Part shown: in pieces, positions 3,008 through 3,373 of the stretch
Numbering within the stretch: position 1 is the stretch's first letter
How the letters are laid out: every line of letters begins with the position of its first letter
Source: a virus
Lineage: Duplodnaviria > Heunggongvirae > Uroviricota > Caudoviricetes
Strand: one strand, 5' to 3'
Virus record (IMG/VR): IMGVR_UViG_2671180755_000006
DNA length: 6,045 nt
Notes under the pieces: generated by a model
Databases searched by the model: none
Told to the model about the DNA's origin: nothing
What the model saw: the letters and a program-made list of their open reading frames with translations, nothing else
Made by a program: the position numbers and the translations under genes

Positions 3008-3035
3008 TTGCTGTAAAGCGAGAGTTAAGTAGAAT
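3008..3035 (+). promoter_or_regulatory. putative sigma70 promoter of the hok-like toxin mRNA (TTGCTG, 16-nt spacer, TAGAAT)
   Basis: Hexamers seen directly. The predicted start (~3043, GGTGCTTGAGGCTGTCTGCCTC) resembles the 5' end of plasmid R1 hok mRNA as I recall it. Confidence 0.5.
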
Positions 3036-3097
3036 TGCTGCGGGTGCTTGAGGCTGTCTGCCTCGGGCATGCCACCGTAAGGCAGACAGAGAAAAGC

Positions 3098-3162
3098 CCC
3101 AGTTAACATTACGCGTCCTGCAAGACGCTTAACATTAATCTGAGGCCCAATCTATGCTTCAC
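3098..3162 (-). ncRNA. sok: putative Sok-like antisense RNA (antitoxin of the hok locus); ends approximate
   Basis: Minus-strand promoter-like hexamers TTGCCT (+ coords 3192-3197) and TAACCT (3169-3174) with a 17-nt spacer, overlapping the hok SD as in R1 sok. The transcript would be antisense to the upstream start region at 3154, with a hairpin at 3113-3128. Boundaries are inferred, not seen. Confidence 0.4.
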
Positions 3163-3210
3163 AAACGTAGGTTAGCCTCTTACGCGCCGAAAGGCAAGGA
3201 GAAGCAGGTT

Positions 3211-3346
3211 ATGAAGCAGCAAAAGGCGATGTTAATCNNNNNNNNNNNNNNNNNNNNNNNNNNNNNNNNNNNNNNNNNNNNNNNNNNNNNNNNNNNNNNN
3301 NNNNNNNNNNNNNNNNNNNNNNNNNNNNNNNNNNNNNNNNNNNNNN
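3211..3346 (+). CDS. hok: Hok/Gef-family type I toxin, only the first 9 codons visible (MKQQKAMLI); the rest lies in the N run
   Basis: SD AGGAG (3197-3201) then ATG 3211. The N-terminus MKQQKAMLI matches HokD/RelF as I recall it. An in-frame upstream ATG at 3154 with SD GAGG gives a mok-like leader. The stop must lie inside the N run because a terminator starts right after it. Confidence 0.65.
3238..3346. other. run of 109 N (unresolved or masked sequence) inside the hok-like gene
   Basis: Seen directly. The visible hok frame has no stop before running through its own terminator, so the run probably does not preserve true length. Confidence 0.95.
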
Positions 3347-3373
3347 AACCCGCTTCGGCGGGTTTTGTTTTTT
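3347..3373 (+). terminator. intrinsic terminator, probable 3' end of the hok-like mRNA
   Basis: AACCCGC-TTCG-GCGGGTT hairpin (UUCG tetraloop) followed by TTGTTTTTT. Confidence 0.8.

Follow-up and report, generated by a model that had tools for sequence, protein, structure and literature searches.

The window analyzed here is a 6,045-nucleotide (nt) stretch of viral DNA (Caudoviricetes; IMG/VR record IMGVR_UViG_2671180755_000006), and our subject is the interval at 3008-3373, in which a first-pass annotation made from the letters alone had recognized the parts of a type I toxin-antitoxin locus (hok/sok) lying inside a prophage. A feature of this kind is already known: it is annotated in RefSeq, it is very common, and a sister locus, hokW-sokW of prophage Sp5 in Escherichia coli O157:H7 strain Sakai, has been characterized.

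Layout of the hok/sok locus in prophage Sp14

Outside its runs of N, the window is found at 100% identity in O157:H7 genomes of many strains (megablast against complete E. coli genomes). Positions 1-3237 and 3347-4836 match Sakai prophage Sp14 exactly, and 3 of 1175 positions differ from Sp14 in 4871-6045. Judged from these matches, the locus is that of Sp14, a lambda-like prophage, which agrees with the first-pass placement. The Sakai gene at this site is ECs_2754, a 213-nt open reading frame (ORF) in the Sakai RefSeq record, and the PGAP label under the match reads "hokD: type I toxin-antitoxin system toxin HokD." The elements of the locus are as follows, in window coordinates.

3007..3035, plus strand: putative hok promoter, with -35 TTTGCT (3007-3012), a 17-nt spacer, and -10 TAGAAT (3030-3035)
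3042..3053, plus strand: tac element GGGUGCUUGAGG at the 5' end of the hok mRNA, predicted to pair with the 3' fbi box CCUCAACGCACCC (under the mask)
3054..3089, plus strand: 5' leader hairpin with a perfect 9-bp stem, 3054-3062 CTGTCTGCC with 3081-3089 GGCAGACAG, inside the Rfam match
3092..3161, minus strand: predicted Sok RNA of ~70 nt, with a single-stranded 5' tail from 3161 to ~3147, a terminator hairpin from 3146 to 3096, and a U run from 3095 to 3092
3142..3237, plus strand: mok-like reading frame, with Shine-Dalgarno GAGG (3142-3145) and a start at ATG 3154, which precedes the hok ATG by 19 codons
3147..3167, both strands: hypervariable block of 21 nt between the mok Shine-Dalgarno and the sok -10, taking in the 5' tail of Sok, the initial codons of mok, and the loop of a putative Sok-target hairpin
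3169..3197, minus strand: sok promoter, with -35 TTGCCT (3197 to 3192), a 17-nt spacer, and -10 TAACCT (3174 to 3169)
3199..3237, plus strand: hok Shine-Dalgarno GGAG (3199-3202) and the first nine hok codons, from ATG 3211 (MKQQKAMLI) up to the mask, with the same nucleotides as K-12 hokD
3238..3346, plus strand: N mask, hiding hok codons 10-51 and the stop codon, a G+C-rich hairpin of the 3' untranslated region (UTR), and the fbi box (as read from identical genomes)
3347..3373, plus strand: intrinsic terminator of the hok mRNA, AACCCGC TTCG GCGGGTT (stem 3347-3364) followed by a T run, from a terminator scan

The body of the toxin gene is hidden by N, as had been noted, and the mask is shorter than what it covers. 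Judged from exact flanks in Sakai Sp14 and PV15-279, its 109 N replace 197 nt; a second mask at 4837-4870 has 34 N in place of 221 nt of rusA, judged from exact Sakai Sp14 flanks. Because the masks are not length preserving, coordinates downstream of each are shifted relative to the real genome. We read the masked bases from genomes with 100% identical flanks (referred to here as the unmasked twin) and not from the window itself. The first-pass annotation had asked whether the hidden gene would prove truncated or frameshifted; in the twin it encodes an intact 51-amino-acid (aa) Hok, MKQQKAMLIALIVICLTVIVTALVTRKDLCEVRIRTGQTEVAVFTAYEPEE, whose MKQQKAMLI N terminus reads in the window just as had been reported. 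The twin protein scores 82.9 bits against Pfam HOK_GEF (PF01848; cut-off, 22) and 114.7 bits against PHROG 251, "MokW-like host killing." No NCBIfam HokD equivalog was matched at cut-off; the highest score, 48.5 bits, was that of NF007279, a Hok subfamily model whose cut-off is 73.

The leader of the hok mRNA was recognized as well. An all-family Rfam scan gave one strong match in the interval, RF01794 at 3042-3216 on the plus strand (114.9 bits; gathering score, 59; E value, 2e-26), which covers positions 1-157 of the 157-position model. This family is named "sok" antitoxin, and it matches in the hok-sense orientation with a consensus that ends in the hok AUG; it therefore models the hok mRNA leader containing the Sok-complementary region, not the antisense RNA. 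The full-model match, together with the alignment to an R1-type locus described below, bears out the earlier description of a leader resembling R1 hok mRNA, and the 9-bp stem described with it lies at exactly the positions given and is perfectly complementary. In a repeat search the arms of this stem extended to 3043-3063 and 3080-3100, and a fold of -32.5 kcal/mol (z score, -4.6) was computed for nt 1-59 of the putative mRNA. By homology to R1 hok mRNA, transcription would start at about G3042, where the Rfam model begins.

For comparison with related loci, an exact-pattern scan of IMG/VR returned 120 stretches and 97 unique phage-borne loci, of which the 87 with an intact hok were used for conservation counts. 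Across these 87, the hok -10 and the bases that follow it are conserved. The full-length mRNA of the twin (420 nt; positions 3743-4162 of record L002) folds at -174.9 kcal/mol (z score, -6.5), with nt 1-12 paired to fbi in both the minimum-free-energy and centroid structures. Among 87 related loci, each of the tac/fbi pairs is canonical in 86 or in all 87. We dropped covariation as support for this pairing, because the pairs are essentially invariant and hence uninformative. In this closely related sample, compensatory changes occurred only at leader pair 3056:3087 (G-C in 22 and A-U in 62 of 87 loci), at the base of the Sok hairpin, and in the 3' UTR hairpin. At the other end of the transcript, the 3' terminator of the first-pass annotation was called by the terminator scan.

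The upstream mok-like start was likewise found in place. Its ATG is in frame with hok, unlike that of R1, and would yield a 70-aa, N-terminally extended Hok, the 213-nt frame listed in Sakai RefSeq as ECs_2754; the 70-aa mok translation of the twin carries HOK_GEF at residues 25-66. The mok ATG is retained in nearly every allele listed, and the Sakai RefSeq record calls the corresponding ORFs "regulatory protein MokC for HokC." An inverted repeat (3155-3164/3209-3218; TGCTTCACAA and TTATGAAGCA, 90% complementary) could pair the first mok codons with the hok start. This repeat, which may be a chance occurrence, depends on the variable block of this allele and on T3209, a position at which 84 of 87 related loci have C.

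On the minus strand, the ends of Sok are predicted ones, and between them the putative RNA spans both the Shine-Dalgarno and the start codon of mok. Folding of an 81-nt region gives -31.9 kcal/mol (z score, -4.5) for the minus strand versus -21.4 kcal/mol for the plus strand. The predicted length fits the 71-nt complementarity reported for sokW, and the northern probe used for that RNA, YO-592, corresponds to window positions 3133-3162. A direct repeat, TTAACATTA, had been described as flanking the putative Sok hairpin, and it lies exactly at 3103-3111 and 3129-3137 (2 matches versus 0.02 expected; two matches in 0 of 200 shuffles). Its role was understated, however, in that the two copies do not merely flank the hairpin: on the minus strand they form the lower Sok stem through A-U and G-U pairs, which are A-C mismatches on the other strand. 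Compared with the Rfam consensus, the top of the hairpin (3112-3128) has a 16-nt insertion in the form of an extra G+C-rich stem, GCGTC/GACGC. In the alignment, the alleles did not preserve the putative Sok-target hairpin (3149-3173) column by column, and we make no structural claim for it.

The hexamers of the promoters proposed for the two genes can be read from the sequence, and the sok -35 and -10 are identical to those of Sp5 sokW, with a 17-nt spacer identical except for one base; the sok promoter is also collinear with the R1-type TTGCGC-17-TATCCT. A generic sigma-70 scan of the window called neither the hok nor the sok promoter. Both are weak matches to consensus, and we assign them as putative promoters by homology. 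The sole promoter match of the scan, TTAACA-18-TATGCT (3129-3158, plus strand), was taken as chance, since it falls within the Sok hairpin and mok start and nothing in known systems corresponds to it.

Relation to hokW-sokW, K-12 hokD, and plasmid R1

The copy that has been studied by experiment is hokW-sokW of Sp5. HokW is toxic, and sokW RNA made from its own promoter neutralizes it (Takada et al. 2021, PMC8621323), partly in a manner that needs RNase III and Hfq (PMC8621323). After mitomycin C, sokW is depleted and the amount of HokW goes up, a response that depends on RecA, and deletion of hokW-sokW halves the release of Sp5 phage (PMC8621323). The sokW -10 was mutated from TAGGTTAG to CCGGCTCG with primer YO-421, which abolished antitoxin activity (PMC8621323). 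This mutation defines the sok -10 as TAACCT, and window positions 3174 to 3169 are identical to it.

We located hokW as ECs_1245, at the right end of Sp5; a position between ECs_1196 and ECs_1199 was rejected, as there was no homology there. From promoter to fbi, Sp5 hokW-sokW and the unmasked twin of the window are identical at 396 of 431 nt (92%) in a gapless alignment. Both belong to lambda-like prophages of the same strain, and they share the sok -35 and -10, the Sok hairpin, and an in-frame mok. The two toxins are identical at 47 of 51 residues and differ at the C terminus (FTAYEPEE in HokW against FVDYESEK here), and the Sok 5' tails differ at 4 of 21 positions. The loci also differ in setting: hokW is close to attR, at the extreme right of Sp5, on the strand opposite to the late genes, and lacks the hokD-type terminator present in the window, whereas the Sp14 copy lies in the early-right operon.

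A second relative is hokD (relF) of cryptic prophage Qin in E. coli K-12. Its Hok is identical to that of the twin at 51 of 51 residues, the DNA is identical at 254 of 258 positions over a stretch that starts at the hok Shine-Dalgarno and takes in the 3' UTR, the fbi box, and the terminator, and both genes occupy the same lambdoid position, upstream of a DUF968 (ydfU) gene and Q. Homology extends no farther upstream than this Shine-Dalgarno: in the stretch compared (MG1655 1645119-1645633), K-12 lacks the promoter, tac, leader hairpin, mok start, and sok, and has relBE at that place. Downstream of hokD, K-12 has rem, whereas the window has an unrelated 92-aa ORF. By this comparison, K-12 hokD is a 5'-truncated derivative of the complete cassette seen in the window. 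The Hok sequence, 3' UTR, and DUF968/Q context alike place the window's copy in the hokD subtype as judged by homology. HokD was among the previously characterized toxic Hok proteins used as positive controls in a toxicity assay (bioRxiv 10.1101/2025.08.07.668861).

According to the introduction of a preprint, hokD mRNA is A-to-I edited by TadA, which recodes Tyr to Cys. Codon 47 of hok in the twin reads TAC with a G after it (context CUUACGAA; L002 4050-4052, under the mask in the window). The site is intact, and by our own reading its context would fit TadA.

The third comparison was with hok/sok (parB) of plasmid R1, made by alignment to an R1-type plasmid locus. Architecture and element order are the same, and the sok promoter hexamers lie at the same places. 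Common to both, from the 5' end, are a box reading GCUUGAGGCU.UCUGCCUC / GCTTGAGGCT.TCTGCCTC, which is followed by a hairpin and then by GGCAGA.AGA..AGCCCC; the Sok hairpin; the mok Shine-Dalgarno GAGGC with its ATG; an AGCCUCUUAC box; AGG.TAGCCTCTTAC, whose complement is the sok -10; and GCAAGGAGAAG.AGG..ATGAA, with the hok Shine-Dalgarno on one strand and the sok -35 on its complement. The sequences themselves have diverged further, with R1 Hok and the twin Hok 42% identical and the leaders about 51% identical (96/188). The window also differs from R1 in that mok is in frame with hok (out of frame in R1), in the extra top stem of its Sok hairpin, in its 3' end, and in its replicon, which is a prophage and not a plasmid.

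Conservation, copies, and prophage neighborhood

Among the 87 phage-borne loci, the cassette is conserved as a unit from ~3000 to ~3373, which matches the boundaries first drawn for it. Nucleotide diversity stays between 0.01 and 0.08 over the leader stems, the Shine-Dalgarno sites, the Sok hairpin, the 3' UTR, and the sok promoter; the value for the Sok hairpin itself is 0.03, as it is for the third positions of hok codons. In 10 of the 87 loci, Sakai Sp9 among them, the Sok hairpin is of another, shorter form whose base shows compensatory changes. The 124-nt leader and Sok region is present in 4213 of 5426 complete E. coli genomes (coverage of at least 80%), and the window's own allele (at least 99% identity) is present in 352 records. 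Fourteen Hok genes have been counted in Sakai (Fozo et al. 2010), and a 2026 preprint catalogued 44,248 Hok homologues, which were enriched in prophages.

Seven intact prophage cassettes were found in Sakai (Sp4, Sp5, Sp6, Sp9, Sp11, Sp12, and Sp14), together with a leader-only remnant in Sp10. The copies of Sp4, Sp6, Sp9, Sp11, Sp12, and Sp14 lie directly upstream of a DUF968 gene, rusA, and Q. That decay occurs, as the Sp10 remnant shows, raises the question of whether the Sp14 locus could be an intact but physiologically silent relic, with no natural release of toxin (like the chromosomal hok loci of K-12 and the ECOR strains) and carried passively by prophage recombination. Such a reading also draws on the weakness of the hok promoter and on K-12 hokD, whose loss of the whole leader and sok was tolerated. 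It sits poorly, however, with regulatory elements that are intact and have a diversity of 0.01 to 0.07 in the leader stems, Shine-Dalgarno sites, and sok promoter, with a hok ORF that is intact in 87 of the 97 unique phage-borne loci sampled, and with the activity of the 92%-identical hokW-sokW in its native prophage. We therefore consider a silent relic very unlikely.

One part of the cassette departs from this conservation. The block at 3147-3167 has a diversity of 0.31, about ten times that of the rest, with 20 alleles among 77 long-class loci. Five Sok-tail alleles are distributed over the seven Sakai copies: Sp5 and Sp11 share one, Sp6 and Sp12 share another, and those of Sp4, Sp9, and Sp14 are each unique. 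The Sp14 tail differs from those of the other copies at 4 to 12 of 20 to 21 positions. The tail duplexes predicted for noncognate pairs have energies of -14 to -27 kcal/mol, and those predicted for cognate pairs have energies of -36 to -40 kcal/mol. Strict orthogonality, with every coresident copy bearing its own tail allele, was rejected on account of the sharing between Sp5 and Sp11 and between Sp6 and Sp12.

Changes in this block alter Sok and its target together, so that poly-lysogens such as O157:H7 could carry partly orthogonal modules, and the Sp14 allele, being unique in Sakai, could act as a private switch. On this basis we offer, tentatively and as something possible but on balance doubtful, the idea that the block is a specificity cassette under diversifying selection, that poly-lysogens carry several partly orthogonal modules of which the Sp14 allele is a private switch, and that read-through from pR could silence sok. 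The variation is equally compatible with relaxed constraint at a site where complementarity is automatic.

The same tail data bear on an active cassette whose main role would be addiction to Sp14, such that cells losing or excising the prophage are killed. This is the canonical role of R1 hok/sok, and since none of the other six intact Sakai copies has the Sp14 tail, a cell that lost just Sp14 would be left with no perfectly cognate Sok. Noncognate Soks nonetheless have the entire hairpin in common with the cognate one, as well as the tail's 3' part, and chromosomal hok loci failed in postsegregational killing assays, which makes addiction an unlikely main role.

Within the prophage, the cassette lies between the replication genes and Q and is codirectional (plus strand) with the early-right operon, which runs from the replication genes to Q. 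Downstream of hok come the DUF968 (ydfU) gene, RusA, and Q, and the 92-aa ORF at 3446-3724 (plus strand) stands between hok and the DUF968 gene (PHROG 1212, function unknown; 126 bits). Directly upstream of hok are two small hydrophobic ORFs on the plus strand, one of 25 aa (MSRPDAFAGVAIAIAFLVYVICRWG; 2750-2827) and one of 34 aa (MSDDISLVMEGALAVIAVVGVYCLVVFLMERLGN; 2863-2967). Neither had a Pfam or PHROG match, and the 34-aa ORF had no NCBIfam match either. The latter is annotated as ECs_2755; in Sp6 and Sp12, too, hok is preceded by an ORF of 105 nt. A perfect 16-bp palindrome, TATGGGAATTCCCATA (2978-2993), lies a short way upstream of where the conserved cassette begins on the left; it is centered on an EcoRI site and is not conserved at other hok loci.

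Beyond Q, a strong terminator-like hairpin, AAAACCCGCCCACAAGCGGGTTTTTTT, occupies 5655-5739 (plus strand). It gave subthreshold Rfam matches to isrK, isrJ, and leader families (21 to 25 bits versus gathering scores of 37 to 55). In lambdoid phages, the short pR'-tR' transcript is made in this region. Prophage tRNA genes follow at 5857-5932 and 5940-6016; the gene with a CAT anticodon is called tRNA-Met by ARAGORN and tRNA-Ile (ileZ) by RefSeq, which places argN after it.

Proposed mechanism and role in the prophage

We read the interval as a full-length type I toxin-antitoxin cassette of the hok/sok family, the hokD-type copy of Sp14, which would work through the canonical pathway and for which killing or lysis assistance at induction is the likeliest role (probability of roughly 0.88). 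The account that follows extends to the Sp14 copy, by analogy with R1 hok/sok and Sp5 hokW-sokW, their transcripts, processing, toxicity, dependence on RNase III and Hfq, and trigger. A weak promoter would produce a hok mRNA of ~420 nt in which tac pairs with fbi, leaving the full-length RNA translationally inert. Slow trimming of the 3' end would then refold the leader and expose the mok ribosome-binding site and the target hairpin. From the convergent promoter would come an unstable Sok RNA of ~70 nt, complementary, in its 5' tail and hairpin, to the Shine-Dalgarno and start codon of mok. Sok bound there would block translation of mok and thereby the coupled translation of hok, and RNase III would cut the duplex. 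Were Sok synthesis to stop, through DNA loss, transcription shut-off, or DNA damage with prophage induction, the stable hok mRNA would be translated, and the 51-aa Hok would insert in the inner membrane and leave the cell depolarized or lysed.

Among the possible roles for such a pathway, killing and lysis assistance coupled to prophage induction appears the most likely by analogy. We favor it because of the hokW-sokW precedent and because the cassette is codirectional within the early-right operon, upstream of Q. We also infer from this codirection that read-through at induction could oppose sok transcription by transcriptional interference. After induction-coupled killing or lysis we rank prophage retention, then phage exclusion, and last a silent relic.

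Phage exclusion would make the main role of an active cassette abortive infection of superinfecting lytic phages, set off by a shutdown of host transcription. PHROGs files the family under morons and host-takeover genes, and high-copy R1 hok/sok is cited in the literature as lowering the plating efficiency and plaque size of T4. The R1 effect is small, though, and needs that high copy number; a genome survey found hok not enriched near defense systems, and hokW-sokW helped rather than blocked its own phage. Taken together, these points leave exclusion improbable as the main role.

Several observations weigh against our main account of the Sp14 cassette. The masked 109 positions are unreadable in the window, so that the integrity of the toxin rests on identical flanks, and neither promoter was called by the generic scan. 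The expression, processing, and toxicity of the Sp14 copy are presumed by analogy, and the induction role is carried over from a paralogue that belongs to another prophage and sits at another site. Chromosomal hokA, hokB, and hokC did not mediate postsegregational killing (cited in a preprint). Coresident Sok RNAs share the hairpin and part of the tail, noncognate tail duplexes are predicted to reach -27 kcal/mol against -39 kcal/mol for the cognate one, and these RNAs might buffer the Sp14 copy.

As hok/sok is a textbook type I system, the practical value of the present analysis lies in a confirmed annotation and in the recognition of K-12 hokD as a truncated form. The sharing of Sok tails also bears on a published phenotype, that of the Sp5 deletion, since in the Sakai strain Sp11 encodes the same Sok tail as Sp5; the published Sp5 experiments used K-12 lysogens, without the second sokW-type tail of Sp11 (PMC8621323). 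More generally, the pattern of differences and sharing in the Sok-tail block between prophages of one genome could guide cross-talk experiments.

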